From: an uncultured archaeon
GTDB taxonomy: Archaea > Asgardarchaeota > Lokiarchaeia > Sigyniarchaeales > SOKP01
Length of the DNA stretch: 64,000 bases
Direction of reading: 5' to 3'
Assembly (NCBI GenBank): GCA_964486045.1
Contig: CAZALK010000007.1
Span: 128,001 to 192,000 of the forward strand
Part shown: piece after piece, positions 9,236-59,291 of the stretch
How positions within the stretch are numbered: the stretch's first letter is position 1
Layout: every line of letters begins with the position of its first letter
Translations under genes and position numbers: made by a program
The notes under the pieces: model-generated
What the model saw: only the letters and a program-made list of their open reading frames with translations
Told to the model about the DNA's origin: nothing
The model's database searches: none

Positions 9236-9502
9236 ATGGCTAAAAAGAAAGCTCCTGCAAAAAAGAAGTCTGAAGGATATATTGCCAAAAACGTCTAAAA
9301 TCTATTTTTTCGTTGGTATGCTCCAATCCGCAGGCTTATGAAAAAAGAGGGTGCAGATTTAGTAGCAGCTGAAGCCCTTGATAAGCTAATTGGCTTCTTA
9401 GAAGGCAGTGCAGCGACGGCAACAAAGGAAGCTATAAAAGTCTGTAAAGAGGATAAGCGCAAGAGAGTAACTGCCGCAGATATTCGCGCCGCAACCCGCT
9501 AA
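9236..9502 (+). CDS. Archaeal histone with lysine-rich N-terminal tail; join(9236..9289,9320..9502), 78 aa after splicing
   Basis: GGAGG SD then ATG; spliced product MAKKKAPAKKKSEGYIAKAPIRRLMKKEGADLVAAEALDKLIGFLEGSAATATKEAIKVCKEDKRKRVTAADIRAATR has histone-fold motifs (APIRRLMK..GA..V; KRKRVTAADI); missed by ORF track because of in-frame TAA at 9296. Confidence 0.92.
9290..9319 (+). other. Putative BHB/BHL-type pre-mRNA intron in histone gene (30 nt)
   Basis: GCCA-[AA^A]-ACG...CGT-TGGT-[AT^G]: 4-bp central helix GCCA/TGGT, 3-nt bulges, inner helix ACG/CGT; carries in-frame TAA; excision gives GYIAK|APIRR. Confidence 0.8.
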
Positions 9503-9532
9503 ATAACTTTAGATTTCAAATATTAATGATAA

Positions 9533-9548
9533 TTTTTTTTCTTTTTTT
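9533..9548 (+). terminator. Oligo-T archaeal terminator after histone gene
   Basis: TTTTTTTTCTTTTTTT about 30 nt after the stop codon. Confidence 0.5.
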
Positions 9549-9925
9549 AATTTTCTTTCTAAATTGTGCTTGATTTTCTTTTACTCACTAATAATGGAAT
9601 AGGTGCACTAGGTGGTGAATCTAAAGACAATTTTAAAAAAAAGAAGGCTAAAAGAACATTATAAAATTAGTGCATAGGGATACGTATATGCACTTAGTCT
9701 TTCCAATAAAGAGGATTTGTCTTTAAAAAATTATCAGAAATGTCTCTTTTATTGAAAATTAAGATAGTTTTTATCAAGTTAAATAAAATATTTGTATAAA
9801 ACTAAAAATTAATTTTAATCAACCTTAGGCATATAATTGACTAAATTATTCAAGACTAAAAGAGGGTATATTTAAATTACTAAATCACTTTCTATTGTAT
9901 TGAGAGTATAAAAACCAGATCAATT

Positions 9926-11204
9926 ATGAAAGAGTTTAAAATTAATAAGTATTTATCATTGAGATTAGAAGATGAAAAGACAAATATCTATATCAACCAA
10001 AAGAAAACCGACAATGTAAATATTTATTAATTGATAGAATCAAATACGACGAAATACCAGAATTGGTTGAAAACTTTGAATCTGTGGATGAAGCAACACA
10101 AAACTCAGATCATTCTTTAGATAATAAGAAAGACGTGATACCACCAGAAACAGAATTTTGGGCGCACTGCTCGAATCTTCAAGTATGGGCGGAAAATAAC
10201 TATGATACACGCTTACTTCATATGTCAATAGCGTTTTCATTATTAAAAGAATTAGCAGAAGCGGGGATACGATGGCCAAAAGAGTATTTAAGGAAGAAAT
10301 TGCTAAACGCCTAGGAAGTGGCTATCCTGCCGTCGTTGATTTTTTAATTCTTGAAGGATTCGACATATTTTTGACTCATGAAGAACGAATAACCTCAGTT
10401 CTAGCACCGGAAGAAGCAGATGTCATCTTGAAGTTAGAGGAATTGACGAAAAAACCCTTTTTTCAATATTCTAACCTTGATGAAAGCTATTCAGATGAAG
10501 GTCCCTTTGAACAAAGGTTTGTCGTTAAAAACAATCATGTTATAGGTATTTGGATTCATTGGGCAAAAGAAACTCCTAGAAAACTCCCCGAGTGGATAAC
10601 TAAATTAAAACTGCTTAAAAGGCTTTATTATACAGGAAATAAAATTAAACATATACCGAAGTTAATATTAAAACTGAAAAGACTCGAGGTCTTACAGATC
10701 GATAGTTTTATTCTAGAAGAAATACCAACGACAATTAATAAGCTAAGATTACTCAAATCTCTAAATATACGAAGCGGTAGCTTGAGAATGATACCAGAGA
10801 CCATTGGTGGACTTTCCCACCTTAAATCTCTTTCCTTAGGCAGTAATTTGATTGACTTACCTATCTCAATTGGGAACTTGGAGAAATTAGAAGAATTAGA
10901 TTTATCTCATAACAAACTTAACAATATTCCAAATTTTATATTCAACCTTAAAAATCTTAAGAACTTGAACATCAAAAACAATAATTTAATAGCTCTTTCA
11001 GAGTCCATAAGCAAACTAGAAAAATTGGAAGAGTTAGATTTTAGTAGAAATCCAATAAGGAGTATTTCAGAATCACTTGTTGATATGGTAAAATTAAAAT
11101 TTGTATCTATTGATAAAATTCCCTCAACTGGTTCTAATATATCTATAATAAAAAAAATGAAAAAAAGAAAGAAAATTAGTGTTTTTGGTTATGTTGGTAA
11201 TTGA
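9926..11204 (+). pseudogene. Leucine-rich repeat protein with two frameshifts (pseudogene or assembly indels)
   Basis: MKEFKINKYLSLRLEDEKTNIYINQK / RQCKYLLID..PETEFWAHCSNLQVWAENNYDTRLLH..LLKELAEAG / D.MAKRVFKEEIAKRL + LRRs lie in three successive frames, with shifts at ~10007 and ~10265. Confidence 0.8.
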
Positions 11205-11229
11205 TTGTCAATACTTCTTGTACCCTTAA

Positions 11230-11637
11230 GACCTATTCCTAAGATGCGTTAACGAAGCCAACCCCATAATTATTCAGCAACACCAATCCAAGATCAAAAA
11301 GTTAAAAACATTTATAATTAGTTATACAAGCAACATTTACACGCCCATAATTAAAACGTATCAATCTTTAAAAGAAAGTACCAATTCCAAATTAGAACAG
11401 TTTTATTTCAATGTTGTAGATGCAATCAATACAAAGCTTGAAAAGGTTGCTAAAAAATTTGAGATGGATATTAGCGAATTATATTTTGATGACGGTTTAG
11501 AACTTAAGATAACGGTTAAGAACAGTCCATTGAGTAAATTCCCTCTTAAAAGCCTTGATTTTGACGATCTGGAGACCACACACAAGAAAGTAATAATTCG
11601 GATCCTCAAAACAGATATTCGCGCTGCTACAAGATAA
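11230..11637 (+). pseudogene. Open frame with no upstream canonical start, ending in histone C-terminus DIRAATR*
   Basis: Stop-free for 135 codons; last 7 aa identical to the histone at 9236; 13-nt identity CAGATATTCGCGC. Confidence 0.45.
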
Positions 11638-11688
11638 ACTTTTCAGATTGAATACCAAAATTCTTTTTTTTTATTTTATATTTTTAGT

Positions 11689-12207
11689 TTAGAAATTTTC
11701 AAAGAATTCTTTATTTAAGTAGTTGTGTATATTCTTTTCAATTTTCTTCTTTACTGCATTTAATCCTTCAGGAAGAACACGAGTTTTTCCTACTATGTCA
11801 ATAAATCCAAGTTCAGATCCGTATCTGGGAATTATATGAAAATGCAAATGGTCAATACTTCCACCTGCATCTCTTCCCTGGTTAATTCCGATATTATATC
11901 CCTTAGGGTTATATAATTCGTCTAATAATAACTGAATTCCTTGAATAGCTCGATTAATGTGAAGTATTTCTTCTTTTGTCAAATCAAGGAACCTTGTTAA
12001 ATGTCGTTTAGTTACGATCATTAGATGCGCAGGATTATACGGATACAAATTCAAAATGATAAAACAAATATCATCTTCGTAAACTTTTAGAATTTCAACG
12101 CGTTCGTCATTATCCCTTACAGCACATAGTATACAATCTACTCTTGGTCTAGATTTGCCTTGAACATAATCTAATTTTCCTAAAGCTTGTAACCAATCTC
12201 TAAAAAT
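11689..12207 (-). CDS. HIT-family (Ap4A/Fhit-like) hydrolase, probable ATT start
   Basis: CILC zinc motif, LNLYPYNPAHLMIV, GYNIGINQG..AGGSIDHLHFHIIPR; frame extends 51 codons above the ORF-track start to ATT after GGTGA SD. Confidence 0.9.
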   Translation of the reverse strand: MFRDWLQALGKLDYVQGKSRPRVDCILCAVRDNDERVEILKVYEDDICFIILNLYPYNPAHLMIVTKRHLTRFLDLTKEEILHINRAIQGIQLLLDELYNPKGYNIGINQGRDAGGSIDHLHFHIIPRYGSELGFIDIVGKTRVLPEGLNAVKKKIEKNIHNYLNKEFFENF

Positions 12208-12236
12208 TGGATTTCACCATTATTCCTGTTTTTAAA

Positions 12237-12785
12237 TTATGAATATAAGGAAAAATCAGAACCTCCCGTAAAATCTTTACTTTTGAGAAAGTCTTCTGGC
12301 TTTATTTTACCTGAGCAATATTCCCCTAATAATATGTGGCTATATGCAGCACCATCAAATACCCGTCTTATTGACTTGAAAAAAGAATTTTTAGAAACAG
12401 TCCCATTATCCTTAAAAAATATCTGATCGTTAATCTCATACCTATAATTATTGAGATCGATTCGATAAAATAAATCCTTAACAAGGAAAAATTTTCTTAA
12501 ATCCCAGAAAAATTGCATTTTTCTGTTTTCCTTTAGTGAGTTTAATGCGTCTATATGTGGTTTTGAAATTTGAGTCCCGAGTGATATAATGATTAAATCT
12601 TTATTTTTTGGTCTTAGAACCGCCATTCTTCTTCCAACTGGGCGTCCTGTAGGATCATTTCCTGGTGGAAAAATAAATTGGAAACCAAAGTCAATTTTAG
12701 GATCAGATATTTTTTCTCTTAATAATCCCTCATCTAATAGGTAATCATGAATTAATTGATTTATTTTACTTTCTTTATCAGACAT
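12237..12785 (-). CDS. Hypothetical protein (DUF2299-like)
   Basis: 182-aa ORF; IHDYLLDEG N-terminus resembles archaeal DUF2299. Confidence 0.6.
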   Translation of the reverse strand: MSDKESKINQLIHDYLLDEGLLREKISDPKIDFGFQFIFPPGNDPTGRPVGRRMAVLRPKNKDLIIISLGTQISKPHIDALNSLKENRKMQFFWDLRKFFLVKDLFYRIDLNNYRYEINDQIFFKDNGTVSKNSFFKSIRRVFDGAAYSHILLGEYCSGKIKPEDFLKSKDFTGGSDFSLYS

Positions 12786-12991
12786 TATTATTCGGTAAGG
12801 TAAAGAATGAATTATTTAATATATTTTTTTATAAGAAGTTGTTCAAGCTAAAGAGGATAATAATCCTAAAAATTAGAATTTTCTTAAAGATTAACATATG
12901 TTGCAAATATTGAATGAGAGTGAATACCGTGGATCTGTATAATTTAAGGAAAATTAAAATGAATAAAAAGTAGTGATAATTAATATTTTGT

Positions 12992-13252
12992 TTAAGTGTC
13001 TTTTTTCTCATAAATAGAAATTTCGTCAACAGAATGAATTGCACAATTCAAGGATGTCAATTTTTCAGTGATAACTTCAAGTGACAGGTCATTTCCGGTA
13101 ATATGTATATGCAGGGAAGCTGTTTTTTGATCTAACTCATCTAATTTAACTCTAACGTCTTTCACTCCATTAACTTCAACTAAAGCACGAGCTACATAGT
13201 CTATACTGGGAGAGTGGGGTTTAAGGACATCCAAATCGTATTCAAATCTCAT
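12992..13252 (-). CDS. DUF211-family protein
   Basis: LDVLKPHSPS and C-terminal AIHSVDEI motifs. Confidence 0.85.
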   Translation of the reverse strand: MRFEYDLDVLKPHSPSIDYVARALVEVNGVKDVRVKLDELDQKTASLHIHITGNDLSLEVITEKLTSLNCAIHSVDEISIYEKKDT

Positions 13253-13339
13253 ATTTTTCTTTTAACCTTTACAAGTTATTGAATTATAATAGTTTAAATG
13301 GATATTTTTATTTTATATTTTCATTATCTCTTTATTTCT

Positions 13340-14029
13340 TTATAAAAGTTTCTTAATTTCTGTTATTAATTTTTGAGGAATTTCACTTTCCCTTACAATC
13401 ACATCTGCTTTTTGAAGGGTTTCTACTATGGCTAGTTTAGTATGAACAGCGATAGAACGAGCGCCAACATTAATAGCACCCTCAATATCTCTGTAATTAT
13501 CTCCAATAACTAAGATTTCATTCGTGGTAACACCGAACTTATCACAAATAACTAGAAGATGATCTGGATGCGGTTTAGGATTACTAACGTTATCTCTACC
13601 TATTATTACATCAAAAAAATTCAGTAATTTGACTTTTTCAAGAGATAATTTAGCATGTTCATATTTATTGAATGTAAAAATTGCTTGTTGAAGATTATTG
13701 GTTTTAGCAAAAATAAGGACTTCTTCGATTCCTTTTATCTTAGTTGCATTAAGAGCAGCTATGTACTCAATTTTACTTACTTCTCTCTCGACTTCTTGTA
13801 AAATTTTAATTACGTGGTTTGGATCATTCCCTTTTTGCTGAAATATTTCTTTAGATGTGTTTATATTATCCAATATGCTTTTTTGAATCGAAAGTTTTGT
13901 TTTATCTATGCCATACGACACAAAAATACTAATTGCCGCTTTACGGGCTTTAGTTGATTTAATTTTGAAGTGTATTAGAGTCCCATCTAAATCCCAAGCA
14001 ATTGCTTTGATAGGTTTTTTACTGTTCAT
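13340..14029 (-). CDS. HAD-superfamily phosphatase
   Basis: WDLDGTL, KPHPD, IGDNYRDIEGA. Confidence 0.92.
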   Translation of the reverse strand: MNSKKPIKAIAWDLDGTLIHFKIKSTKARKAAISIFVSYGIDKTKLSIQKSILDNINTSKEIFQQKGNDPNHVIKILQEVEREVSKIEYIAALNATKIKGIEEVLIFAKTNNLQQAIFTFNKYEHAKLSLEKVKLLNFFDVIIGRDNVSNPKPHPDHLLVICDKFGVTTNEILVIGDNYRDIEGAINVGARSIAVHTKLAIVETLQKADVIVRESEIPQKLITEIKKLL

Positions 14030-14048
14030 TTAACTGAGGAATATATCT

Positions 14049-14633
14049 TTAATATTCTAAATCAGAATACTGAGGCCCTTGAGGGGTTAGCACGGATTTT
14101 TTAAGCTTAATTTGTTTTACGTTAAATGTTCCAAATTCCAAGCTTTTATTCTCATTCATGAGTTTCTTAAAAGAATCAAATGTCTTGTAGTTTATTTTTC
14201 CTTTTTTTAATCGTCCAATGGTCAGGTGTGGTTTAAATTTAGTTCTTTTATCCCGATCTATTTTTAATCTGATATTCAATAAATCTTCGACTGAGTTCTT
14301 GATGGTCTGTATAAGGGAGATATCTCCTACAAGCTTTATCCATAAAACTGAAAATCTGTTGAACTGACCTACGCCTTTGAGATAATATTTGAATTCTTTT
14401 CCTTGAATGATTTTTTCATTTATTTCTGACTTTAATAATTCATATATTTTTGGAGCCAATAACTCAGAAATGTTTCCTAAGAATTTAACTGTCATATGTA
14501 GGTTCTCTGGTCTCACTAATTTCAGATTTGGCTGATTTTTTTTCAGATGCGAAGTGAACGAGACGATATTCTCAATCGTAGATTTTTCCGATAATTCAAG
14601 AGCGATGAAGGATCTAATCATTTTTTCCCCCAA
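14049..14633 (-). CDS. thpR: RNA 2',3'-cyclic phosphodiesterase / 2'-5' RNA ligase (2H family)
   Basis: RSFIAL, NLHMTVKFLG, FKPHLTIGR (two HxT motifs), SVLTPQGPQY. Confidence 0.92.
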   Translation of the reverse strand: MGEKMIRSFIALELSEKSTIENIVSFTSHLKKNQPNLKLVRPENLHMTVKFLGNISELLAPKIYELLKSEINEKIIQGKEFKYYLKGVGQFNRFSVLWIKLVGDISLIQTIKNSVEDLLNIRLKIDRDKRTKFKPHLTIGRLKKGKINYKTFDSFKKLMNENKSLEFGTFNVKQIKLKKSVLTPQGPQYSDLEY

Positions 14634-15793
14634 TAGTTAACAATTCTCCAATCTTTATCTTTTAGCTGTTTTCTATGTTCAGGAATAATGTGGACTTCAT
14701 TCAAATCCTCTAATGATGAAGATTTTATTATTTTAATTATGTCTTGCAAAAATAGTATATTCATTTTACCTCTAGTATCCGCATCAGCCGAAGCATTATG
14801 GGGAATAAGAATTATTCGAATTTCAGGTCGTTTTTGTTTGATCTTCTTAAATCTCTCAATGGTTTTATTATCAAGTGGTTCTATTGGAAAGACATCAAAA
14901 GCTAAATTTATTCGAATTTCGTTTGTTTCAAGCAAATCAAGAAGAGATTCCAAATCCAACACTGATCCTCTTGCTGTATTTACTAACAAGGCATTTTTTT
15001 TCATAAGTTTTAATAAGTCCCGATTGACCATTTTTTCAGTGTGTTTATTTAAAGGAACATGAATAGTAACAATATCTGATTCTCTGAAGACATCTTCTAA
15101 ATGTTCTTTAAACTCGAGGGAAGGGAAACCTTGTTCGAAATCATTCATTTGTTTGATATCAAAATAAAGAATTTTAATCCCCCAAGGGTATAATCTCCTA
15201 ATTAGTTCCTTTCCAATTTCGCCCAATCCAACAATTCCGACTACTTTACTGGTGATTAAGGAAGAAAGAGATTGATCTAAGTCCCATTTATCATCAGGGG
15301 TCCATTGGTCATCCCATATATAATTATGAAGATCTACTAAATTCCTTAAGTTTGCCATGATTATGGCTATAGTATAATCTGCAACTGTTTCATGAAGAAC
15401 TCCAGGAGTATGAGTTATAATAATATCATCTTTTTCCGTTCTCTGAATATGGTTATATCCGGCTGTTGATGTGGAAACTGCAAAAATATTTGATTTTTCC
15501 AGAGTTTCTGAGATTAAAGAATGACTTAAGTGACATCCTATGATATCTGGTTTAAAATTCTCTACGCTTTTGTTAATTTGATCGTCTGAGGGAAACCTCC
15601 CACTGAATACCTTTACTTCTGATTTTTGATTTAGTTCTTGCCACAAATTTCTAATTTCTTTTCGAATGCTTTCAGAAATTAATTCATTCGATCCAATTTC
15701 CTCATCTGAGAAAACATTTGAGGTGAGAAATACCTTAGGTTTATAGGTCATATTCATAACCAGTATTTTTGTTCTTTTGAATTTTGTGATCAT
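14618..15793 (-). CDS. D-2-hydroxyacid dehydrogenase (glyoxylate reductase-like)
   Basis: THTPGVLHETVAD, GIVGLGEIG, NTARG, DVFPIEP, PHNAS. Confidence 0.9.
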   Translation of the reverse strand: MITKFKRTKILVMNMTYKPKVFLTSNVFSDEEIGSNELISESIRKEIRNLWQELNQKSEVKVFSGRFPSDDQINKSVENFKPDIIGCHLSHSLISETLEKSNIFAVSTSTAGYNHIQRTEKDDIIITHTPGVLHETVADYTIAIIMANLRNLVDLHNYIWDDQWTPDDKWDLDQSLSSLITSKVVGIVGLGEIGKELIRRLYPWGIKILYFDIKQMNDFEQGFPSLEFKEHLEDVFRESDIVTIHVPLNKHTEKMVNRDLLKLMKKNALLVNTARGSVLDLESLLDLLETNEIRINLAFDVFPIEPLDNKTIERFKKIKQKRPEIRIILIPHNASADADTRGKMNILFLQDIIKIIKSSSLEDLNEVHIIPEHRKQLKDKDWRIVNYWGKK

Positions 15794-15883
15794 TAATTTC
15801 GAAATTCAATTTTATCTAATTATCAAAATTTATTAAATCAAACTCTATCTTATAATTAAAACTAACTGGACAGGTGGTAGAAG

Positions 15884-16027
15884 ATAGCAAAAGTAAAATG
15901 TCAAGAATGTAAGAAGGAAATTGTAGGAGGGGCTAAAATACAGGAGTTTGATATGAATGAGCCCACAAGTATGCATGTCTTCTGTTCTGAGACGTGTAAA
16001 GAGAAGTGGCTCGCCACAATAAGTTAA
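15884..16027 (+). CDS. TRASH/zinc-finger microprotein (47 aa), probable ATA start
   Basis: (M)AKVKCQECKKEIVGGAKIQEFDMNEPTSMHVFCSETCKEKWLATIS*; CxxC...FCSxxC pattern; AGGTGG SD upstream; in-frame TAG two codons before the ATA. Confidence 0.75.
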   Translation: MAKVKCQECKKEIVGGAKIQEFDMNEPTSMHVFCSETCKEKWLATIS

Positions 16028-16138
16028 GAACAAAAAAACTGTTAATACCATTTTTATATTTCAGAATTTCCATTTAACACAATTCCCTCAAGAAAATAAG
16101 TAGAATTTATCAGCCTAAGAAAAATTTAATCTTTTTCA

Positions 16139-17101
16139 TTATCTTTTAATTTTTTCAGGAAGGTAGAAATCATAAGTTTTCTTAAATAGGTTGGTTTTGA
16201 TGTATCTATCAATTCTCCTAGCATTTTGAAAAATCATCCAAATCATTTTATCACTTTTATAATACTTTTGCACTTCGACAAAATTAATAGGTTCCAGTTC
16301 AAATTTACTCGCTTCTTCATTTAAGAATTGATTTACTCTTTTTATTAATCGAGGGATGATTTCAGGCATTTGTTCTTTAATAAAATTGGCAAGTAAGTCA
16401 ATAATTACTAACCTCAAATTATAATAACGATCTAACACATCTTGAATGAAAAATGCCTTAATTAGGAATTTTAAGAATGAAGGTGTACTATTTAAGAACA
16501 ATTCTGCTTCCATTGATTCCACTCCATTTTTTCGAAGCATGGGAGTACTTGTATCAAGATATAATAGTTTAGAATTTTCATTTACAGTAGGATTCTTTGA
16601 ATCATAATCCATTACAACAAAATTAGAAATTTGGCCATCTAACCCTATTTCTAGAGCTGAATTTTCCTTATTTAATTTCCATACTTTCTTTAGTTCTCGT
16701 AAAACAAGCAAAACCAGGATTTCTACCTCATCCTCATTCACCTGGTGAATAATTTTGTTACCAACGGATTCGGGATCAATTTTAGCTTGGATGCTGTAAA
16801 ACTGAATTTTTTCCTTATCATCGAAGAACCAAATAACCTTATGTTCAGGAAGAATCATGCCTACATCTTCCTCTAAAATTCTACAATACTTATTATAAGC
16901 CCAAATATGCCTTTGAACTTGTTTTTCATTTTCGAATATTGGAATTCTTTTATAGGCTAATTTTTCTGGATCACCAATGATTTCAAAAACTAGACTTATT
17001 TCTCCGAATCCAAGTATTTTTATAGGGATTTTTCCCTTCTCAGGATGAATTGTATCAATTGTCTTTTCAAACTCTTTTAACAAATCAATATCGATTTTCA
17101 T
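16139..17101 (-). CDS. Hypothetical protein (DUF6206-like, kinase-like fold)
   Basis: LGFGEISLV, AYKRIP, GLDGQISN, YLDTSTP, C-terminal LPEKIKR. Confidence 0.65.
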   Translation of the reverse strand: MKIDIDLLKEFEKTIDTIHPEKGKIPIKILGFGEISLVFEIIGDPEKLAYKRIPIFENEKQVQRHIWAYNKYCRILEEDVGMILPEHKVIWFFDDKEKIQFYSIQAKIDPESVGNKIIHQVNEDEVEILVLLVLRELKKVWKLNKENSALEIGLDGQISNFVVMDYDSKNPTVNENSKLLYLDTSTPMLRKNGVESMEAELFLNSTPSFLKFLIKAFFIQDVLDRYYNLRLVIIDLLANFIKEQMPEIIPRLIKRVNQFLNEEASKFELEPINFVEVQKYYKSDKMIWMIFQNARRIDRYIKTNLFKKTYDFYLPEKIKR

Positions 17102-17326
17102 AAATAATCAAATAAATTATGCTATCTCTCTCAAATTTAGTTTAACATTATATTTTTATGCTAATAAATGTTAATCAATCGCTTACAAATTTATAAATAG
17201 GTTTATTTAAAACAGTACATTGAACAAGTAGGATATTCGAAAATGATGAGAAATGTGGTATGAGTAAACAGAATTTTTCTATGATCATGGAGCAGAGATC
17301 TGAGTTTGAATATCTTTTTCTTCATT

Positions 17327-18805
17327 TTATTGATTTTTTAATGAATAACTCTCTTTACGATCAAGAATTTTTTTAACCATATCTTCTCTTTCTGATTCTT
17401 GGAGTCTTTGAATATATCTTTCCAATTGATCCCTCGTATGGTATGGCCCACCTTCAGTTAACACGATTTCCATTGGATCCTTACTAATTGGAAATTTCTC
17501 TTCCATTTCTTTATACCATTTATCAAGAAGTTTTAATCCCTTACGGATTACTTCTGGTTTTTCCTCTGCCACATTTTGCAACATATGAAAATCTTTTTCA
17601 TAATCATAGAGCATTAGTTCTGGGAAATTCTTTAATCCAGTATGATAAGTCTTAATTAATGTCCAATTTTCAAATCTAACAGTGCGTTGACAACTCCATG
17701 CATTCTGACTAATAACCAGGAATTCCCTTCCAAATTCTTCATTATTTTCAATATTCTTAAAGAAGCTTTTGCCATCCCAAAATTCAGGGATGTTCAACCC
17801 TAAACCTTCTAAAACTGTCGCTGCTACATCATTTTGATAGATTAATGAATTTTGTTCCGTTTTCCAATTTTTCTCAGGCCATTTTATTATCATTGGAACA
17901 CGATTAGTTACATGACAGGCAGTAGCGTGATCACCGTAAACATTTAGTTCCCCTTGATTTTCTCCATGATCAGAGCTTATAATTATCAATGTATCCTCGT
18001 AGATACCTTGATCCTTCAGAATTTCTATTATTTTACCAACGTATTCATCCGAATAGTTTATACCAACATCATATCCATCAATCCATTGTTTAAAATCATT
18101 AATATCTCTAATTTCTTTGAGATTTTTCAATCTAGGAAACCACTGAGAAAGATCCTGTCCTACAAATCCAGATAAATCACAAGCAGAATGCGGTCCATAA
18201 CTTTTCCTGTGTTCATCTATGATTTCTTGTGTTAACCAGGAAGGTGCAGGTTCATTCTCAAAGGTATTTAAAAATTCTAAAGGAGTACGGTAAGGGGTGT
18301 GAGGATCCCAGAAATTCACGTGCAAAAACCAGTTATTTCTTTTTTCATTATCTTTTAACCATTTCTCTGCATAAGTAAAAATTTGTTCCGCTCTCTCCAT
18401 CCCTCTTTTTCCAGGGTTATACATTTCTTTCCATCCAGAATTGAACCAAAAAGCAGAATGCCGTTCTGCGAATGGTGATATAGAGACAGGATATATCCTC
18501 GCTCTTCTGAGCATGCTGATCCAGTTAAAACTTAGAAATTGATCTTGAAATCCTCGTGTTTTACCAGTTAACTGTAAATCTGCAGCAGTACCACCATGCC
18601 CAACAACACCAGAGTGTATACCAAATCGACCTGTAAAAAGAGAAGCTCTAGATGGTAAGCATGGGGCATCAGATACATAACATTCTGTAAAAATTGTCCC
18701 ACTTTTTGCTATTTTATCGATATTAGGGGAGGTATTAAGATGATATCCATAACACCCAAGATGATCAGGTCTTAAGGTATCGATATCCAGATAAATAATT
18801 CTCAT
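17327..18805 (-). CDS. Sulfatase (formylglycine-dependent)
   Basis: DTLRPDHLGCYG, CLPSRASLFTG (CxPxR), DPHTPY, SDHGE. Confidence 0.93.
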   Translation of the reverse strand: MRIIYLDIDTLRPDHLGCYGYHLNTSPNIDKIAKSGTIFTECYVSDAPCLPSRASLFTGRFGIHSGVVGHGGTAADLQLTGKTRGFQDQFLSFNWISMLRRARIYPVSISPFAERHSAFWFNSGWKEMYNPGKRGMERAEQIFTYAEKWLKDNEKRNNWFLHVNFWDPHTPYRTPLEFLNTFENEPAPSWLTQEIIDEHRKSYGPHSACDLSGFVGQDLSQWFPRLKNLKEIRDINDFKQWIDGYDVGINYSDEYVGKIIEILKDQGIYEDTLIIISSDHGENQGELNVYGDHATACHVTNRVPMIIKWPEKNWKTEQNSLIYQNDVAATVLEGLGLNIPEFWDGKSFFKNIENNEEFGREFLVISQNAWSCQRTVRFENWTLIKTYHTGLKNFPELMLYDYEKDFHMLQNVAEEKPEVIRKGLKLLDKWYKEMEEKFPISKDPMEIVLTEGGPYHTRDQLERYIQRLQESEREDMVKKILDRKESYSLKNQ

Positions 18806-18881
18806 ATTCTTAAGTTAAAACAAATTGTTTTTTAAGTTTTTTAGATTTTTAAATCCAGATCTAGATAATAGTAATTTATGA

Positions 18882-22022
<3,141 letters not shown>

Positions 22023-22101
22023 CCTCTATGTGAGAAGTTATCATTTTAACTTTTATTTATATAATAAAAATAGAAATAATTTCAAATAAACTGGTGTTAG
22101 A

Positions 22102-22917: not shown

Positions 22918-22992
22918 TCATAAATATTCTGAGCAATTTTTCCCAAAAAAGAAATAGTTACGGAAACAGCTTCAATAAAATAGTTTTATTCG

Positions 22993-26189: not shown

Positions 26190-26253
26190 GACAAATACAT
26201 AAAATTTTATATAAAATAAAGAGAAATGAAAAAAGAAATATTAAAAAAAAAGT

Positions 26254-32177: not shown

Positions 32178-32282
32178 CGCAGATGGAGGGACTCGAACCC
32201 CCGAACGCTTTCGCGCACCAGCTTTCTCGAATGATAAGAAAAATACTCGAAGCTGGCGTCTTACCAGCTAGGCTACATCTGC
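32178..32282 (-). tRNA. tRNA-Ser(CGA) with 22-nt intron at 37/38 (32224..32245)
   Basis: Acceptor GCAGATG/CATCTGC, discriminator G, anticodon stem CCAGC/GCTGG, long variable arm GCGC-GAAA-GCGT, GGTTCGAGTCC T-arm; central helix TTCG/CGAG with bulges AGT and AAA. Confidence 0.95.
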
Positions 32283-46998: not shown

Positions 46999-47099
46999 CT
47001 TAGTTATATTTATTTTTTCTATTTTTTATATCAAAATATTTTTGAATTGATTTGTATTAATCTCACTTAACATAATCAATAAATTAATGGGATATTCAT

Positions 47100-48419: not shown

Positions 48420-48560
48420 TTTTTTTTTTCTTTAATAATGGTATTCTAGAAGAAAATGTAGGTTTATTTCAAATAGTTTAATTTTTTTACCGATTTCAAT
48501 GGATATTCCTGAATTGAATTCACATTATTATTTCTAACCTAATTTGGTTTTATCATTAGA

Positions 48561-49751: not shown

Positions 49752-49790
49752 CTCGCCTAAGTTTTTAATTTTATAAATTAAATAATATTA

Positions 49791-50891: not shown

Positions 50892-50962
50892 TAATTCTAA
50901 AAACTAGGTTTAAAGAGTGATTTTCTTAAAATCCAATAATTTAAGTATTTACATAATTAAAT

Positions 50963-52276
50963 TTAATTTTTATCTTTTAATCTTTCTTCGATTGATCTTT
51001 TATGAGAATAGAATCCTTCAAATTCTGATAATTTAATTGCAGTACTACTGAGTTTAACCAATCCATCTTTTTCACATTTTAGAACATCAATAGTTTTTAA
51101 GAAATCATACAAATTTAAACCTGAATAAGTTTTCGCACTTCCTCCCGTTGGTATCACATGATTTGTTCCAGCACAATAATCTCCTAAAGATACCGGTGAA
51201 AAAGGTCCTAAGAATACCGCTCCGGCATTAACAATTTTTTTTAATAAATTATTTGGCTCTTCTATCAAAATTTCAAGATGTTCTGGAGCAATTAGGTTAC
51301 TAATTCTCATACAATCTTCAGTATCTTCGGCTTTGATAATTAAAGAATTATTGAATAGAGCCTTCTCAATAATGTCTCTTCTATTTGAATTTACTACATA
51401 ATCTTCAATATTATTTTTTATCTGATTAATTAGATCTACAGAATCAGATACTATAATTCCGATATTGTCTGGATCATGTTCAATTTGAGAAAGTAAGTCA
51501 ACTATTACATAATTCGGATTAGCAGATTCGTCACAAATAATTAATATCTCAGAAGGTCCTGCGGGACTGTCAATAGCAATGTCATTTGATAGAAGTTGCT
51601 TTGCCGTATTAACCCAAATACTTCCTGGACCAATTACTTTTTGAACCTTTGGTATAGTCTTTGTACCATAAGCCATAGCGGCTATTGCTTGAGCACCCCC
51701 AACTTTAAAGATTTTTTTAATACCACATTCATTTGCAGCGACAAGAATTGCAGCTGCAATTTTATTATCTTGCTGTGGGGGTGAACACATGATAATTTCA
51801 TTAATCCCTGCAACGAAAGCAGGGGCAGCAATCATTAGAACAGTACTGGGGTAAACTGCTCTACCCCCAGGGATATATATTCCAAGAACATCTAATGGTC
51901 TATAGATTTGTCCGGCATTAACTCCTTTTTCTATTTCAATCATCCAATCCTCTCGAGCTTGAGCTTTATGAAATTTAATAAGATTTTCTCTGGCATATTG
52001 AATTGCCTTTATCAAATCTTCATTTATTTTTTCATACGCCTCAGAGATTTCATAAGCCTTGACTTGAATCTGTTCTGAAGATAATTCTACATTATCAAAA
52101 TCTTTAGTAAATTTAATAATTGCATCATCACCCCTTTCTTTCACCTCCTGAATAATTGAACTAACAGAATCTTGAACAGATTTATCTTGAGTAGTAGTGC
52201 GCTTAATATATTTTGTCAGAGTTTCCTCGTTAATTTGGTCTGAATTTATTACTTTAATTGAGGTCATTTTAATCAA
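50963..52276 (-). CDS. hisD: Histidinol dehydrogenase
   Basis: GIYIPGGRAVYPSTVLM, GGAQAIAAMAYGT, AGPSE, APEHLE, GDYCAGTNHVIPT. Confidence 0.97.
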   Translation of the reverse strand: MIKMTSIKVINSDQINEETLTKYIKRTTTQDKSVQDSVSSIIQEVKERGDDAIIKFTKDFDNVELSSEQIQVKAYEISEAYEKINEDLIKAIQYARENLIKFHKAQAREDWMIEIEKGVNAGQIYRPLDVLGIYIPGGRAVYPSTVLMIAAPAFVAGINEIIMCSPPQQDNKIAAAILVAANECGIKKIFKVGGAQAIAAMAYGTKTIPKVQKVIGPGSIWVNTAKQLLSNDIAIDSPAGPSEILIICDESANPNYVIVDLLSQIEHDPDNIGIIVSDSVDLINQIKNNIEDYVVNSNRRDIIEKALFNNSLIIKAEDTEDCMRISNLIAPEHLEILIEEPNNLLKKIVNAGAVFLGPFSPVSLGDYCAGTNHVIPTGGSAKTYSGLNLYDFLKTIDVLKCEKDGLVKLSSTAIKLSEFEGFYSHKRSIEERLKDKN

Positions 52277-52281
52277 TTTAA

Positions 52282-53262
52282 TTATTGTATATCTCCTAAA
52301 GGTAAAATCTGACGTGGCTCATGAACTACAAGGCCTTGAGCATATTTTCGTAACTGTGGAATTAAGCCTAAAAATTCATCTTTTTTAATAATAGTATTTA
52401 CAGCAAACCATCCTTCACTTCCAGCTAATTTTGAAATTGTTGGGCGTTTTAAGGCGGGAAGTTCTAGGAGAATTTTATTTAAGTTTTCTTCCTTTACATT
52501 CATGAAAATATGTAACTTTTTTCTTGCTTCTATTACTCCTTTTAGTAATACAAGAATATCTTTAATTTTTTCTTGTTTCCATTTATCCAACAAGGCATTT
52601 TTATTAGCTATTAAAACGGCTGTAGAGGTGTCGATTACTTCCACGATTTTCAAATTGTTGTCTTTTATCGTTGTTCCTGTGGATGTGTTGTCAATTATTA
52701 CATCAACCTCTTCTGGTGGCTTAGCCTCTGTTGCTCCAAAAGATAGGAAAATCTTAATTTTTTCATTTTCCCCCCATGATTTCCATGGAGTAATGACTAG
52801 AGGTGTTTTTTCACCGTAAATTTCTTTATATGTCTCATTTTCCCTTAAATAATTCATCGAAAGAGTCAAATATTCTGTTGAAATCCTCAAGGTTCTACCA
52901 TCCTCATAAAATTTTTTTATTATTTCATCTAAAGAATTCATATTCTCCCAATTACTAGGAACACAAAGGACAATCGAAACAGCACCTATTTCTAAATCTA
53001 ATAGGATTTCTACATTTGTATTAGTTTCTTTAACCCAATCAATTCCTGAGATCCCAAGATCAAATGTATTTTCCCCTAAAAGATAATTCGGTATCTCTTG
53101 GGGCCTAAGTAGTTTAATAGATATTTCTGGATCCCCAACAGTAGGCCGATAATCTCTTTTTGATGCGAATAAAAGTTTTAAACCAGCTCTTTCAAAAAAT
53201 GAAGCTACTGTATCTTGTAAACTTCCTTTCGGGATTGTAAATTTTAACACTCTTTCATTCAT
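52282..53262 (-). CDS. hisG: ATP phosphoribosyltransferase (long form)
   Basis: IPKGSL, RPQEIP, DLGISGID, GATE, TSTGTTIKDNNL, C-terminal regulatory domain. Confidence 0.95.
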   Translation of the reverse strand: MNERVLKFTIPKGSLQDTVASFFERAGLKLLFASKRDYRPTVGDPEISIKLLRPQEIPNYLLGENTFDLGISGIDWVKETNTNVEILLDLEIGAVSIVLCVPSNWENMNSLDEIIKKFYEDGRTLRISTEYLTLSMNYLRENETYKEIYGEKTPLVITPWKSWGENEKIKIFLSFGATEAKPPEEVDVIIDNTSTGTTIKDNNLKIVEVIDTSTAVLIANKNALLDKWKQEKIKDILVLLKGVIEARKKLHIFMNVKEENLNKILLELPALKRPTISKLAGSEGWFAVNTIIKKDEFLGLIPQLRKYAQGLVVHEPRQILPLGDIQ

Positions 53263-53459
53263 TAAACATCTATAAATATCGTATATATAATAATTTATTC
53301 ATTGAGTTTTTGAAGGAGTGTGAGAATAAAAAATTCAGACAATTGATATATAAATATTGTCGTAAAACTCAATTCTTAAATTTATGAAACCAATTATATT
53401 TATAGCAAAAAAACATGTATACTTAAAATAATATCTAGAGATTAAGGTTAAGATTTATT

Positions 53460-54314
53460 ATGTCGCAAAATCTCGCGCTTATGTTCACTGTAAAAACCGG
53501 TGGAGAAACTGAGGCAATTAATTGGAGTAAAGAATGTTTTATGGCGAATACTTCAATAATTGTGCTAGATGAAAGTTCTGAGGCACTTTTTTTATGGCAT
53601 GGCGTTCAACAAGGATTAGTTGCTCGAAGAACTGCTTTAAGGCAAGCTGAGGCATTAAAAGGTCATGGATACACCGTAGGAAGAAGCATTATTGGTAGGG
53701 ACATCAAAATAATAAAAGAGATTGATGCAAGAAAGGTAGGGAAAGTTCCGGAGGATACTGAATTAAATAATGAACTACAAGGAGTTTTGGGGAGAAATTT
53801 TACAGCATTAGACAACAATATTGTTACATTTCAAGCAGGCGCTAGTGCACCGAAAGTTGTAAAACAAAAGGTAAAAGAAGAACCGAAACCCAAGGCAAAA
53901 ATGGTACAAGCATCACCAACCACCAAGCCTGTAGTCCATGTAAAAGTTGCTACACCATCAAAATTTGCTGATGTTGGTTCTGAATATGAAGAAACAGAAC
54001 CATTGCCTAATATTAAGCCTCAACATAATCCATCTAAGCCAATACCCGCAATTCAAGTGTCTAAGTCAAGCTTGAATACTGATGCTAAGATATCTTTTGT
54101 CTTTAGCGCCATTTTAGAACATTTTAATGATATTTGGATTTCAAAGAAGTCTGATGGAAGTTTTTCTGTTGAAGAGATGGATGGGCCAATCTGTGTTTTT
54201 CACCTAAAAGAAGGGAACAAAATTAATTTTACTGCGGATAGTTTCAATAATTTGAATCCTAGCATCAAATTAGCTATACAAAAGAAATTTATCGAACTCT
54301 CAAAACTAATTTGA
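53460..54314 (+). CDS. Gelsolin-domain protein with Pro/Lys-rich linker and C-terminal domain
   Basis: IIVLDESSEALFLWHG....VARRTALRQAEAL fits the gelsolin repeat consensus (xLD....xxWxG......R.A...A). Confidence 0.7.
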   Translation: MSQNLALMFTVKTGGETEAINWSKECFMANTSIIVLDESSEALFLWHGVQQGLVARRTALRQAEALKGHGYTVGRSIIGRDIKIIKEIDARKVGKVPEDTELNNELQGVLGRNFTALDNNIVTFQAGASAPKVVKQKVKEEPKPKAKMVQASPTTKPVVHVKVATPSKFADVGSEYEETEPLPNIKPQHNPSKPIPAIQVSKSSLNTDAKISFVFSAILEHFNDIWISKKSDGSFSVEEMDGPICVFHLKEGNKINFTADSFNNLNPSIKLAIQKKFIELSKLI

Positions 54315-54412
54315 GAGCTCTTAAAACTAATATTTTTTATTATTATCCTTTTTATTATTTATTAGATTTTAGAATAGAACTAAAACGTAATTTTAGAATT
54401 CTATGATCAATT

Positions 54413-56164
54413 ATGAAATTCAATAAATTAGCACAGCTTTTTTCAGAACTAGAGAGTACTACAAAAAGGTTGGAAAAGATTGATATTCTATCAAAATTTT
54501 TTAGAGAAATTAAGGAATTAGGAAAATTCGAAGATTTAGATAGTATTGTTTATCTTTTACAAGGTCAGTTAGTACCAAATATAAAACAATTTCCCAAAAT
54601 GGGAATAGCTGAAAAAATGATAATCGAAGCATTATCGATACACTCTGGATTAGAAAGTAAGGAAATTAGAGATGTGTTGGTGAAACAAGGAGATATAGGA
54701 GCAACTGCTGAACTACTTTTATCGAAGAGAAGAAAACAAAGATCCCTTTTTGATTATGATGAAAAAAATACAGCACCTTCCTTAGAGCTTTCTGATTTAT
54801 ACTCTGAGTTAAAGAAAATCGCTTTAACTGATGGTGTAGGCTCACATGATAACAAGTTAGGAATTTTAAGAGGATTGATGAGAAAAAGTTCCCCTTTAGA
54901 AACGAAATATGTATTACGAATCATAACATCTACACTAAGAGTGGGTGTTCAATCATCAACAATTATCGAAGGTTTAACTCATGCATTAACAGGTTCTAGA
55001 GGAAATAAAGAATTTATTGAAAGAGCTTATAGTTTACATCCGGATTTGGGCGAAATTTCAAAAATTTTAGCAGAGCAGGGTTTAGAGAAAGTAAAAGAGA
55101 TCGATATTGAATATGGAACTCCTATTCTTAGCATGCTTGCCTCACGAGATAATTATACTGAATTTGTTAGTAGATTGGGAACGCCTTTTATCGCAGAGTA
55201 TAAACTGGATGGAGAAAGACTTCAAATACACAAAGATGGAGAAAATGTAATTTTGTTTTCCCGGAGGTTATTGGATATTTCAGAACAGTATCCTGATGTA
55301 TGTGAAATTGTTAAAGAAAGTATAAAAGCACATAAAGTTATTGTTGAAGGGGAAGTTGTTGCCATGGACCATGTTTATGAAAAAATGCTTCCATTTCAAG
55401 TTTTGAGTAAAAGAAGACGGAAATATGATGTTGAAGATATTTCTAAAGAAGTTCCCGTTTGTTTATTTGTGTTCGATCTCTTAAAATTTGGAGAAGACTC
55501 ATTTGTAGATAAAGCCTTGCCTAAACGTCGTAAAAAATTAGAGGAAATTATAGAAGAAAGGGATGAGTTGCGCCTAGTTAAATCGGTAACGATTAATTCT
55601 ACTGATGAATTGCTGGATTTCTTTAAAAATGCGAGATTAGAGGGAAATGAAGGCATCATGGCAAAATCGATTCAGGATGATGCAATTTATCAAGCAGGTA
55701 ATCGAGGTTTTTTATGGATAAAGTTGAAAAGTCTAGAAGGAGGTAAATTAAGAGATTCTATAGATGTCGTCATAGTAGGAGCATTTTATGGAAAAGGTCG
55801 ACGAACTGGGGTATTGGGAACATACATAGGTGCTGTGTACGACCCAGAAATAAATAAATTTATCGCTTTTACTCGATTTTTTTCCGGTTTAACTGATGTG
55901 TTATCAGTATCTTTAACTCAAGACATGGAAAAATACAAAACAGATAAAAAACCAAGTAATGTGATATGTGAAGATAACCCTGATTTGTGGCTTCAACCCA
56001 AAATCGTAGTTGAGATAACTGGTGATGAATTAACAAGAAGTGACAAATTCGCTAGCTTAGGTTATTCTTTGAGATTTCCAGTTTTCCAAAGATTACGTTA
56101 CGAAAAAGACCCGAAAGATATTACTACAGTTGATGAAATTAATGAATTATACAAAACACAATAG
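54413..56164 (+). CDS. lig: ATP-dependent DNA ligase
   Basis: EYKLDGERLQIH (KxDG), EGEVV, FDLL, EGIMAK, WIKLK, LRFPVF.R.R. Confidence 0.97.
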   Translation: MKFNKLAQLFSELESTTKRLEKIDILSKFFREIKELGKFEDLDSIVYLLQGQLVPNIKQFPKMGIAEKMIIEALSIHSGLESKEIRDVLVKQGDIGATAELLLSKRRKQRSLFDYDEKNTAPSLELSDLYSELKKIALTDGVGSHDNKLGILRGLMRKSSPLETKYVLRIITSTLRVGVQSSTIIEGLTHALTGSRGNKEFIERAYSLHPDLGEISKILAEQGLEKVKEIDIEYGTPILSMLASRDNYTEFVSRLGTPFIAEYKLDGERLQIHKDGENVILFSRRLLDISEQYPDVCEIVKESIKAHKVIVEGEVVAMDHVYEKMLPFQVLSKRRRKYDVEDISKEVPVCLFVFDLLKFGEDSFVDKALPKRRKKLEEIIEERDELRLVKSVTINSTDELLDFFKNARLEGNEGIMAKSIQDDAIYQAGNRGFLWIKLKSLEGGKLRDSIDVVIVGAFYGKGRRTGVLGTYIGAVYDPEINKFIAFTRFFSGLTDVLSVSLTQDMEKYKTDKKPSNVICEDNPDLWLQPKIVVEITGDELTRSDKFASLGYSLRFPVFQRLRYEKDPKDITTVDEINELYKTQ

Positions 56165-56189
56165 TCTAGAACTATTACATTATTTACAA

Positions 56190-57680
56190 TTAAAGTTTGA
56201 TAATTAGATTATTTTTCCTTTCTAAATCTTTTAATGACGAGGGTAGATGCTCAATTTTATTAAAATTTAAGTCTAGAATTTTTAATTTTGATAGCGAGGT
56301 AACTGAATCTGGGAGGGTTTCAAGCCGATTACCCCATAGATTTAATTCTTCCAAAGCTGATAAGGCTCCTATCCATATTGGAAGAGTCGTAAAATTATTC
56401 CAGCTTAGATTTAAGCTCTTAAGTGAGCTTAAATTTATTAAAGAAGATGGGAGAATACGTAATTCGTTATTTCTCAAATTTAATCTTTCTAGTGATTTAA
56501 GTGAACCAAATGATTCTGGAATTTCAACCAAGTTATTATCATACAGATCTAATTCTTTGAGTGAGGAAAAAGAACCCAACCAAGGGGGAAGATTTGATAA
56601 TTTATTACCTCCTAATCCTAATTTTTCTAATGATGAAAGAGGTTCTATGGCATGAGGTATTATTTTAAAATTATTCCACCCTAGCTCTAGCTCAGTTATT
56701 GAATTACTCAAATTTACCGCTATACACCTCAATTTATTTCCATGTAAATCTAGAGTTTTTAAAGAAGAAAGTGATTTGATTGATTCAGGGAGATGTGATA
56801 GGACATTGTTTCTTAAATTTAAATGCTCTAGTGATGATACTGATCCTATAGATTTTGGGAGCTTTCTTAATCTATTTGATTTAAGATTTAAAGTTTTTAT
56901 TAGCGTAAAATTGTGAAGATTAGGAAGATTTACTAATTTGTTATAACTTAAATCCAAATACTCAATTGAATTATTAAACGTTTCAGGAATCTTAGTTAGG
57001 TGATTAAAACGCAGGTCACACATTTTAAGTTTTCTCAATGAAAAAATTGGTTCAAGGAAATTTTCAAGTTTATTAACTCCTGAACTATATCTCTCAATAT
57101 TTGATAGATCTAATACACGGATTAAACCATCTTCATTATTCTTAAATTTGAAGTAACCAAATTTTATTTTCAAAAATGAAATAATGTGATAATTTATTAA
57201 AATTTCTGCAAGTTTAATACTAGAGAAGTTTCTTATATTTTCCTTTTTAACAAAACTCTTCAGGATAGAATTAAACTGTTTTTTTTGAAGCTTCTTTAAT
57301 TTACTAATTAAAATAGATTTAGATTTTTCATTATCTATACTTGCTATTGTTGAAATAATTGTTGTCAAACACTTTAAAGATTTTTCATGTTCCAGAGCCC
57401 ATATCATTGGATCTAGAGCTTTATCCTGATAATGATTTTTTAAAACCTTACAGGTTAAATTTCTAACGTCTTCATTTAATTCAGAAATTAGTAAATGTTC
57501 TAAGAATTTAAAAGTTCTTTCATCATTAATTTGTATTTTATTCAATATTTTAACGCTTTCTATTCGTGTTTCAACAACATCAGCATTTTCAATTAAAGTT
57601 AATATTAATTCAATAGCAGATGACTTATCTAAATCTTTATTCTTAAAATCTTGATAAATAGCATTTGGAGTTAAAGGCAT
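56190..57680 (-). CDS. HEAT-repeat + leucine-rich repeat protein
   Basis: N-terminal HEAT-like helices; many LxxLxLxxNxLxxLP repeats. Confidence 0.9.
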   Translation of the reverse strand: MPLTPNAIYQDFKNKDLDKSSAIELILTLIENADVVETRIESVKILNKIQINDERTFKFLEHLLISELNEDVRNLTCKVLKNHYQDKALDPMIWALEHEKSLKCLTTIISTIASIDNEKSKSILISKLKKLQKKQFNSILKSFVKKENIRNFSSIKLAEILINYHIISFLKIKFGYFKFKNNEDGLIRVLDLSNIERYSSGVNKLENFLEPIFSLRKLKMCDLRFNHLTKIPETFNNSIEYLDLSYNKLVNLPNLHNFTLIKTLNLKSNRLRKLPKSIGSVSSLEHLNLRNNVLSHLPESIKSLSSLKTLDLHGNKLRCIAVNLSNSITELELGWNNFKIIPHAIEPLSSLEKLGLGGNKLSNLPPWLGSFSSLKELDLYDNNLVEIPESFGSLKSLERLNLRNNELRILPSSLINLSSLKSLNLSWNNFTTLPIWIGALSALEELNLWGNRLETLPDSVTSLSKLKILDLNFNKIEHLPSSLKDLERKNNLIIKL

Positions 57681-57710
57681 GAATCTGAAATTATCATATG
57701 TATATGTGTT

Positions 57711-59291
57711 TTAAATTCTTTCAATAACCATACCACCCAATCTAATAGGACCACCTGTAGCGTTGTATATTTTTTCTGCTTTTCTCAATTTAGATTCACT
57801 TTGGGAATAGATTCTAAACACTAGATCTCCTTTCTTAATTTTTGCTCCTTGTTTTTTTATAATTTCTACGCCAGACATCTTGGAACTTGGACATCCCGCA
57901 GTTTTTGCTATTTGGTTGATTATTGAATTATTCACTTCAACTATATAACCGTCTTTTTTAGCAAAAAATTCTTTTAGACTTGGACCAATTTCAATATCTT
58001 CTGGCTTAACATTGGGATTTCCCCCTTGGATTTCGATGATTTTTTTCATTTTTTCATAAGCCTTACCGGAATGTAAAATATCTTTTGCTAAGGTTTGACC
58101 TTCACCTTTTTGAGCTTTTCCACTCATTTCGAGAATCATTCCAGCTAAATCGGTGGATTTTTCTATTAAGGAATTAGGTCCAGCTTTGTAATCTCTAAGC
58201 AATATCAAAGCCTCTCTAGCTTCTAAGGCAGGTCCAACAGCATGTCCTATAGGTTGGTGAGCTAATGTTAGTGCACATTCTGATTCAATACCTACATTAG
58301 CTGCGATTTCTTTAAATAAATAAGCGAATTGTTTTCCATTCTCTGGAGTTGGAAATTTAGTACCTTCTCCAACAGGAATATCAAGAACCAGTTTTTTAAC
58401 ACCCAATGAAAGTTTTTTAGTGAGAATTGAAGGTATCATAAGACCCACAGGATCCATATGTAGGGGACGCTCAATTTCAATTAGGACATTATCTGCGGGA
58501 GCTGTTTCAAGCGCCCCACCCCAAATTATACATGCATTTTCTTTGGAAACAATCTCATTTAAGTCGTGGGGGTTAAAAGCAACTGGTGCAAGAACTTCCA
58601 TAGAATCTGCCGTTCCTGATGGTGATGTTATAGCTCTCGTCGAAGACTTTGGTATAGTTAAACCCGCTGCTGCAACAATTGGGACAATAATGAGAGAAAC
58701 TTTATTACCAGGGACGCCACCGTTCAGCAAAAATTACTAACTGTAAATTTTTGTACTGTGTTTATCAAACACATCCATCCCAAAATAAAATATTTCCCCA
58801 CTTCTAGTTTCTGCTAATGTCAGAGCAGTCATTTCCTCGTTGTCCATCCCATTAATTGAAACTCCTGTTATAAATGCTGCCAGATCAATTCTAGATAATG
58901 ATCCAGATACAGCGTCAGATACTATACTGTTTATTTCTTCACTTGAAAGTTTTTGTCCTTTAATCTTCTTTTTAATATGCCTGAAAGAATCTGGAGGTTC
59001 AGCAGGTTTTACTGAAACAATCGTCTCATTTTTTAAACTCTTTTTTTCTCGTAAAATATCTAGAAAGATCCCAATTTCCCCAGAATCTACGACTGAGTTT
59101 GAGTAATCTATTTGGATAATAGCTGTCCAAAATTTATCCTCTAAAGATCGTGATTTGATATTTTTAATAAAAATACGTTCTCCTGCTTTTTGTCCTAATT
59201 CTTGAGCATCTTTAACATTTAACACAACATCTCTTGTATTTCCAGTTTCAAAATTTATTTCTTTTACTTTCAGTTTCATATTTTCAACCAA
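57711..59291 (-). CDS. AMP phosphorylase (thymidine phosphorylase family); join(58753..59291,57711..58722), ~516 aa after splicing
   Basis: Two same-frame ORFs give ..FDKHST / GGVPGNKVSL..PKSSTRAITSPSGTADSMEVL..APAD..QPIG..VGPALEA; separated by a 30-nt stop-containing insert. Confidence 0.92.
58723..58752 (-). other. Putative BHB/BHL-type pre-mRNA intron in AMP phosphorylase (30 nt)
   Basis: Minus strand CAGT-[AC^A]-AAAATTTAC-agtta-GTAATTTTT-GCTG-[AA^C]: central helix CAGT/GCTG, 8/9-bp inner helix, in-frame TAG TAA; excision yields CAC AGT ACC GGT GGC = HSTGG. Confidence 0.85.

Follow-up and report, generated by a model that had tools for sequence, protein, structure and literature searches.

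Two unrelated genes in a 64,000-nt stretch of an Asgard archaeal genome (contig C7, positions 128001-192000; hereafter, the window), one encoding a histone and the other AMP phosphorylase, are each interrupted by a short insert that closes the reading frame. The locus raises the question of whether such inserts are removed from mRNA by the tRNA splicing endonuclease EndA and, if so, how widely. An initial annotation had proposed EndA-type pre-mRNA introns in genes that appear split and had placed the DNA in the Asgard archaea, and we arrived at the same view on all these points. Routine, constitutive splicing by EndA and the ligase RtcB of largely neutral, high-turnover mRNA introns is very probably the correct reading of the genomic data. 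It is also probable that the host family, within the Promethearchaeota, has evolved a spliceosome-free split-gene system like that of eukaryotes, with dozens of standard 30-nt mRNA introns per genome, essential and multi-intron genes, ordered splicing around a micro-exon, ongoing gain and precise loss, selection for stop codons within in-frame introns, and a tRNA endonuclease obligatory for mRNA maturation.

The histone gene occupies positions 9236-9502 of the forward strand. Its first exon (9236-9289; 18 codons from the ATG at 9236, with a GGAGG ribosome-binding site upstream) matches intron-less orthologues; the insert (9290-9319, phase 0) carries an in-frame TAA, and the second exon (9320-9502) matches PF00808 positions 6-64. 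Translation of the unexcised frame stops after 20 aa, and excision gives a 78-aa protein matching the intron-less orthologues. The AMP phosphorylase gene, present as a single copy, lies on the reverse strand (59279-57711). Its first exon (58753-59279) starts at the ATG at 59279, matches PF02885, and ends within the Thr codon of the DKHST motif; the insert (58723-58752, phase 2) contains in-frame TAG and TAA, and the second exon (57711-58722) matches TIGR03327 positions 167-500. Excision regained the DKHST-GGVPGNK motif and a 512-aa protein. Thus, the inserts described initially (30 nt, AT-rich, stop-containing, with a 4-bp helix that includes one G-U pair and with 3-nt bulges) are real, and their removal restores the orthologues exactly.

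Both inserts fold as relaxed bulge-helix-bulge (BHB) elements of the HBh' type. Pairing joins intron bases -6 to -3 to the four exon bases ahead of the final two and leaves two 3-nt bulges, and the cut after base 2 of each bulge is the cut that restores the protein. The central helix is 4/4 paired, with one G-U pair, in the histone (GCCA/TGGT; bulges AA|A and AT|G) and in AMP phosphorylase (CAGT/GCTG; bulges AC|A and AA|C). The intron stem has 6/9 pairs in the histone insert (73% AT) and 8/9 pairs with a 5-nt loop in the AMP phosphorylase insert (80% AT), and the exon-side helix is weak in both (0/4 and 2/4 pairs, respectively). Shuffled inserts, a control also named in the initial annotation, matched the BHB shape at P = 0.0002 for each insert. 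The ViennaRNA fold of the histone junction agreed with the BHB (central-pair probability 0.7-0.88).

A marker-gene survey was performed across 121 Asgard genomes, 48 of which lie outside the host family. AMP phosphorylase was broken at the same codon in 29 genomes, all in the host family and across nine genera, and the inserts, all of which were read, were 29, 30, or 31 nt long. All 28 distinct junctions had 4/4 central pairs through covarying bases, representing six helix types (TAGC/GTTA, CAGT/GCTG, TAGC/GCTA, TAGT/GCTA, CAGC/GCTG, and CAGT/ATTG), while permuted helix partners gave a mean of 21.3 and a maximum of 27 junctions at 4/4. The intron stems were paired in 22-25 of 25 per column, with substitutions on both strands. 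The exon Ser codon was AGY in 28 of 28 intron-bearing junctions and TCN in 13 of 39 intron-less ones (Fisher P 0.0004, in kin that are not independent). The dN/dS values of 0.03-0.10, with the intron present or not, indicated purifying selection. On the protein tree, the intron state changed at least 10 times and intron-less relatives had exact junctions, a pattern that fits either an ancient gain followed by repeated exact losses or the exchange of alleles. Two reverse transcriptases encoded in the host genome are a possible route to precise loss. In two genomes (L142 of G061, and G071), the AMP phosphorylase frame begins about 100 residues late compared with relatives (421 and 431 aa); upstream of it, no exon that matched was found in L142.

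The host genome (5.18 Mb, 45 contigs, 31% GC, 99% complete) was then surveyed by a census in which no BHB motif was used to call inserts. A congener, G006, supplied the proteins encoded in 1.62 Mb (48%) of its genome. These were aligned to the host genome (1125 open reading frames (ORFs), 294,000 residues), and 13 internal gene-breaking inserts were identified, eleven of 30 nt and two of 32 nt; another three calls, located at the ends of proteins or in stretches of low complexity, were noise and were set aside. All 13 inserts had the BHB shape (3/4 or more central pairs, 7/9 or more stem pairs, and a 3' bulge starting with A). None of the 12 in-frame indels that lacked a stop had this shape, and it occurred in only 0.8% of coding windows taken at random and 1.0% of inserts after shuffling (best of five registers). 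In the reverse comparison over the same genes, G006 had two private inserts, both 30-nt BHB introns; thus, the intron burden differs several-fold between congeners.

The census hosts were RNA polymerase A' (Rpo1N), EF-2 (in the P-loop), CdhA (two introns), FwdA, AMP phosphorylase, SelD, a ThiL/SelD-like protein, a MoxR ATPase, two small GTPases, a dodecin, and a zinc-finger protein. Comparison with paralogues, in which break calls at the N or C terminus were disregarded as noise, added two further histone genes with two introns each, and a thiolase, a GH57 hydrolase, and an acyl-CoA dehydratase activase (names assigned from motifs). Pfam matches and orthologues confirmed introns in uL11, RNase HII, adenylate kinase, and mevalonate kinase, together with a second dodecin intron. 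Scans of the host genome that combined the motif with ORF joining served only as a source of leads, which were then checked by homology, and a Pfam histone search across the relatives was dropped as too insensitive to be useful. With the 13 introns from paralogues and orthologues, the window histone included, the total was at least 26 introns of approximately 30 nt in 22 protein-coding genes. A rough capture-recapture estimate (census versus intrinsic scan) gave approximately 35 introns in the genome, affecting less than 1% of genes. The expectation that two cases in 64 kb imply more genome-wide was therefore correct in kind, while the density is lower, at approximately one per 150-200 kb; no further introns were found among the neighbors of AMP phosphorylase, where orthologues covered only about 20 kb of the window. 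As Rpo1N, uL11, adenylate kinase, RNase HII, CdhA, and AMP phosphorylase are single copy and are interrupted within key motifs, with no second copy available, their inserts must be removed.

The 26 introns share one design. They range from 27 to 32 nt, with 30 nt the length of 19 of the 26, and six shift the frame; hence, the exactly 30-nt, frame-preserving design noted initially describes both window loci but is the mode rather than the rule. A 30-nt intron consists of a single base of the bulge, a stem of 9 bp closed by a loop of 5 nt, the helix strand of 4 nt, and a further two bases of bulge. The central helix is 4/4 in 22 of the 26, the intron stem has 6-9 of 9 pairs in all, and an A opens the 3' bulge in all 26 and the 5' bulge in 20 of them. 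Pairing in the exon-side helix is no better than chance (mean 2.0/4 pairs), and the strict hBHBh' form, which relaxed elements such as that of cbf5 do without (PMC2738675), was not found. In all census cases, the BHB register lies among the few registers that restore the orthologue, and in shared-site inserts of 28-85 nt the frame was always regained at that register. All three intron phases are present (11, 8, and 7 introns), and 15 of 26 introns split a codon. Every unspliced frame reaches a stop within nine codons, with three different stop codons in use. Stop enrichment was tested in the census, as stop-free inserts would have been detected there: 11 of 11 in-frame introns contained a stop, whereas shuffles that preserve the structure gave an expectation of 7.1 (P about 0.003). 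The census introns occupy conserved stretches, eight of the 13 lying above the 90th percentile of local identity, in a comparison whose detection favors conserved flanks. The intron loops of the relatives' AMP phosphorylase, Rpo1N, and RNase HII genes often contain TTTC or TTCG, which suggests a UUCG-like stable loop.

At 27-32 nt, the introns have no room for the core of a group I or group II ribozyme (hundreds of bases), and Rfam matched only tRNA in the window. With regard to archaeal introns that bear a homing endonuclease, the longest insert seen is 85 nt, and the sole LAGLIDADG_3 match in the host genome falls in a 1429-aa frame located elsewhere, in a search confined to that endonuclease family.

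Beyond AMP phosphorylase, breaks were seen in Rpo1N in 14 genomes (three sites, insert lengths 30-85 nt) and in EF-2 in 21 genomes; the nine EF-2 cases that were read fell at five sites, all 30 nt and all with 4/4 central pairs. At the sites searched in these three genes, no such break was found in the 48 genomes outside the family, same-order single-contig genomes included. In two genomes (G025 and G051; loci L230 and L231), the 65-nt Rpo1N insert comprises a 30-nt and a 35-nt intron flanking a 4-nt exon, and the second central helix is completed only once the first intron has been removed. At a second Rpo1N site (L228 in G026 and L229 in G022), 85-nt introns contain several internal hairpins, and nested introns are possible. 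An Rpo1N split in another family (G089) was a small frameshift that did not resolve as an intron, and shortened EF-2 matches in G007 and G019 were contig ends rather than long introns.

The machinery for such splicing is encoded in the host genome. It has two EndA genes, alpha and beta, for an (alpha-beta)2 enzyme. EndA alpha (C7, 36.3-36.9 kb) aligns to the Aeropyrum pernix catalytic subunit, with Y142, H150, and K181 present and with the L1/CSL loop lysine K59 (K44 in A. pernix); EndA beta, on contig C10, is without the catalytic His and is a structural subunit. Cleavage of relaxed motifs has been reported for the (alpha-beta)2 architecture with an L1/CSL loop (PMC5829648), and the relaxed-specificity type anticipated in the initial annotation was thus the one found. 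RtcB is intact, with a 496-aa open frame. The conserved shape of the inserts points to their removal by EndA and RtcB. The sequences show each intron as a hairpin whose 3' end pairs with four exon bases shortly upstream of the 5' splice site, with two 3-nt bulges that mostly start with A. By analogy with cbf5 and tRNA splicing, the (alpha-beta)2 EndA would cut after base 2 of each bulge, and RtcB would ligate the exons. A few dozen mRNAs would be spliced in this way, routinely and constitutively. The introns would be mostly neutral passengers in codons of conserved motifs, with frequent gain and precise loss in the family, under two constraints: they would have to remain spliceable, and the unspliced message would have to terminate at once, presumably as a fail-safe.

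Several points weigh against this reading. The splicing itself is predicted from genomic sequence. At the AMP phosphorylase junction of the host genome, ViennaRNA favored a slipped, non-BHB hairpin (central-pair probability 0.04-0.15), and the support for this junction is comparative, not thermodynamic. Four introns of the host genome have only 3/4 central pairs (three census introns at the chosen register, and that of GH57). A motif-only scan of the genome was not above decoys overall (57 vs. 54-67 hits; 7 vs. 1-4 in the strictest tier) and recovered 6 of 16 known cases; the motif alone is therefore not diagnostic. The reading also leaves unexplained how splicing outpaces coupled translation and where new introns come from.

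The alternative that survives best is a regulated switch, which, in the manner of IRE1 and HAC1, would make a selected set of genes, histones foremost, depend on EndA activity. HAC1 and XBP1 mRNAs are spliced without a spliceosome by the protein nuclease IRE1 together with a tRNA ligase (in animals, RtcB); IRE1 belongs to a different nuclease family, cuts two separate stem-loops, has one target, and is activated by stress. The likeness drawn initially holds for the combination of protein nuclease and tRNA ligase only, as there is no sign of stress-type or signal-controlled regulation in the archaeal system. The histone genes offer something to this alternative. Six were found in the host genome, of which three bear five introns in all, and orthologues of the window histone have gained introns at four sites; inserts at its own site also occur in G044, G050, and G004, and one 30-nt histone insert in G004 is without a stop codon. 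In-frame stops would render the unspliced mRNA unproductive, and a regulatory role has been proposed for the cbf5 intron (PMC2738675). Set against this, close relatives lack the same introns (the orthologue of the window histone is without an intron in 28 of 30 loci read), G006 has two private introns versus 13 in the host genome over the same genes, and the AMP phosphorylase tree alone holds at least 10 state changes. The idea that splicing couples chromatin and nucleotide-salvage genes to EndA activity was not upheld: the host genes are drawn from transcription, translation, carbon fixation, GTPases, and cofactor metabolism, and some of them are both essential and single copy. The switch is the least supported part of the initial annotation because the hosts share no function and sister species are without the introns. 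We regard it as unlikely; the histone excess leaves it a small opening and may alternatively reflect conserved, highly expressed targets.

Constitutive splicing is also to be weighed against translation across an uncut RNA, by ribosomal bypassing of the T4 gene 60 type or by stop read-through. Each insert does carry an early stop and a hairpin, and some matching codon pair lies near the ends in 11 of 26. The explanation fails because the phases split codons (15 of 26) and matched take-off and landing codons are missing in 15 of 26, both window loci included; three different stop codons occur, and bypassing does not need the conserved exon-intron helix with A-led bulges. We consider it highly improbable. 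Equally hard to sustain is the view that the inserts are small mobile hairpin elements that have inactivated genes, or assembly errors, even with an estimated contamination of 7.8% for this metagenome-assembled genome (MAG) and with hairpins that resemble miniature elements. The same sites are occupied by diverged sequences in up to 29 independently assembled genomes, and the hosts are under purifying selection and include essential genes with no second copy. The repeats at the insert ends span 0-5 nt, none of the inserts was found to have a second copy in the host genome, and the introns resemble one another only at the level of shuffles, except in two histone paralogues; this explanation is already largely refuted. 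Excision at the DNA level, or RNA removal by another nuclease, is the least credible, as recombination repeats are not present and the cuts fall exactly after base 2 of both 3-nt bulges, where EndA is described to cut (PMC2738675).

BHB splicing of mRNA itself is already known. A cbf5 pre-mRNA intron is found in Sulfolobales and Desulfurococcales (PMC2738675; reviewed in PMC10485636), and the introns described here resemble it in being short, in lying in the coding sequence within a conserved catalytic motif, in their relaxed BHB, in the cut after the second bulge base, in the (alpha-beta)2 EndA, and in precise loss in some lineages. Unlike that single-gene case, the host genome has introns in at least 22 genes, information processing included, with a near-uniform 30-nt length, multi-intron genes, and rapid turnover, and its relatives have a 4-nt micro-exon. 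Its own cbf5 is one 341-codon open frame with the GTLD motif and no intron at the catalytic Asp codon. The HVO_1309 intron of Haloferax volcanii (46 nt, processed by an alpha'2 EndA, a single case; PMC7714728) is likewise an EndA-type BHB intron in mRNA, but it lies in the 5' untranslated region, which leaves cbf5 as the sole archaeal gene with a published case within its coding sequence. A 2023 review counts these two genes, cbf5 and one Haloferax untranslated region, as EndA-spliced mRNAs (PMC10485636), and introns in other genes had already been predicted according to the 2009 cbf5 paper (PMC2738675). A 2026 preprint on Asgard introns deals with tRNA genes only (0 occurrences of "mRNA"). 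It shares with our case the repeated BHB gain in Asgard lineages and a two-subunit EndA, while here protein-coding genes are the targets and it is the intron-side helix that is stable. No account of mRNA introns in Asgard archaea or of a multi-gene BHB mRNA system was found in a literature search with subscription journals outside its coverage, and mRNA splicing of this kind on a genome scale appears to be new.

If this reading is correct, mRNA splicing is routine and essential in a prokaryote, which raises the question of how it coexists with transcription-translation coupling and the absence of a nucleus. The system would be a parallel to spliceosomal introns, not their ancestor, and would offer a naturally occurring, rapidly evolving example of how introns are gained, lost, and quality-controlled, open to comparison over approximately 70 related genomes. 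In practical terms, the RNA polymerase A', EF-2, uL11, histone, and Wood-Ljungdahl genes of these MAGs would be miscalled as split or missing, and phylogenomics and metabolic reconstructions would be distorted as a result.

The window also contains a tRNA-Ser(CGA) gene (32178-32282, reverse strand; RF00005, with the anticodon and long variable arm read from the sequence) with a 22-nt intron at position 37/38 (32224-32245, reverse strand; central helix TTCG/CGAG). The geometry that it was initially said to share with the mRNA inserts holds for the central helix and bulges, but the supporting helix differs: the exon helix is strong and the intron helix weak (hBH), in contrast to the mRNA inserts with their intron-side support (HBh'). 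ARAGORN wrongly labels this gene as Arg; over the whole host genome, it made only 31 tRNA calls, many with wrong anticodons, which is consistent with heavily interrupted tRNA genes.

Ahead of a leucine-rich-repeat protein, two overlapping forward-strand frames (10063-10314 and 10272-11204) resemble a frameshifted or duplicated N-terminus, and no BHB candidate was listed there. A candidate intron at C17:6250-6279 (L288) was rejected, as it is instead part of an MvhD-like gene with a selenocysteine-type in-frame TGA; this region mimics a BHB intron in motif scans and is a pitfall for intron callers. Within the window, an MvhD-like gene downstream of HdrA (62685-63998) has in-frame TGA codons at 62462-62464 and 62615-62617 (reverse strand) at cysteine-type positions, and it probably encodes a selenoprotein.

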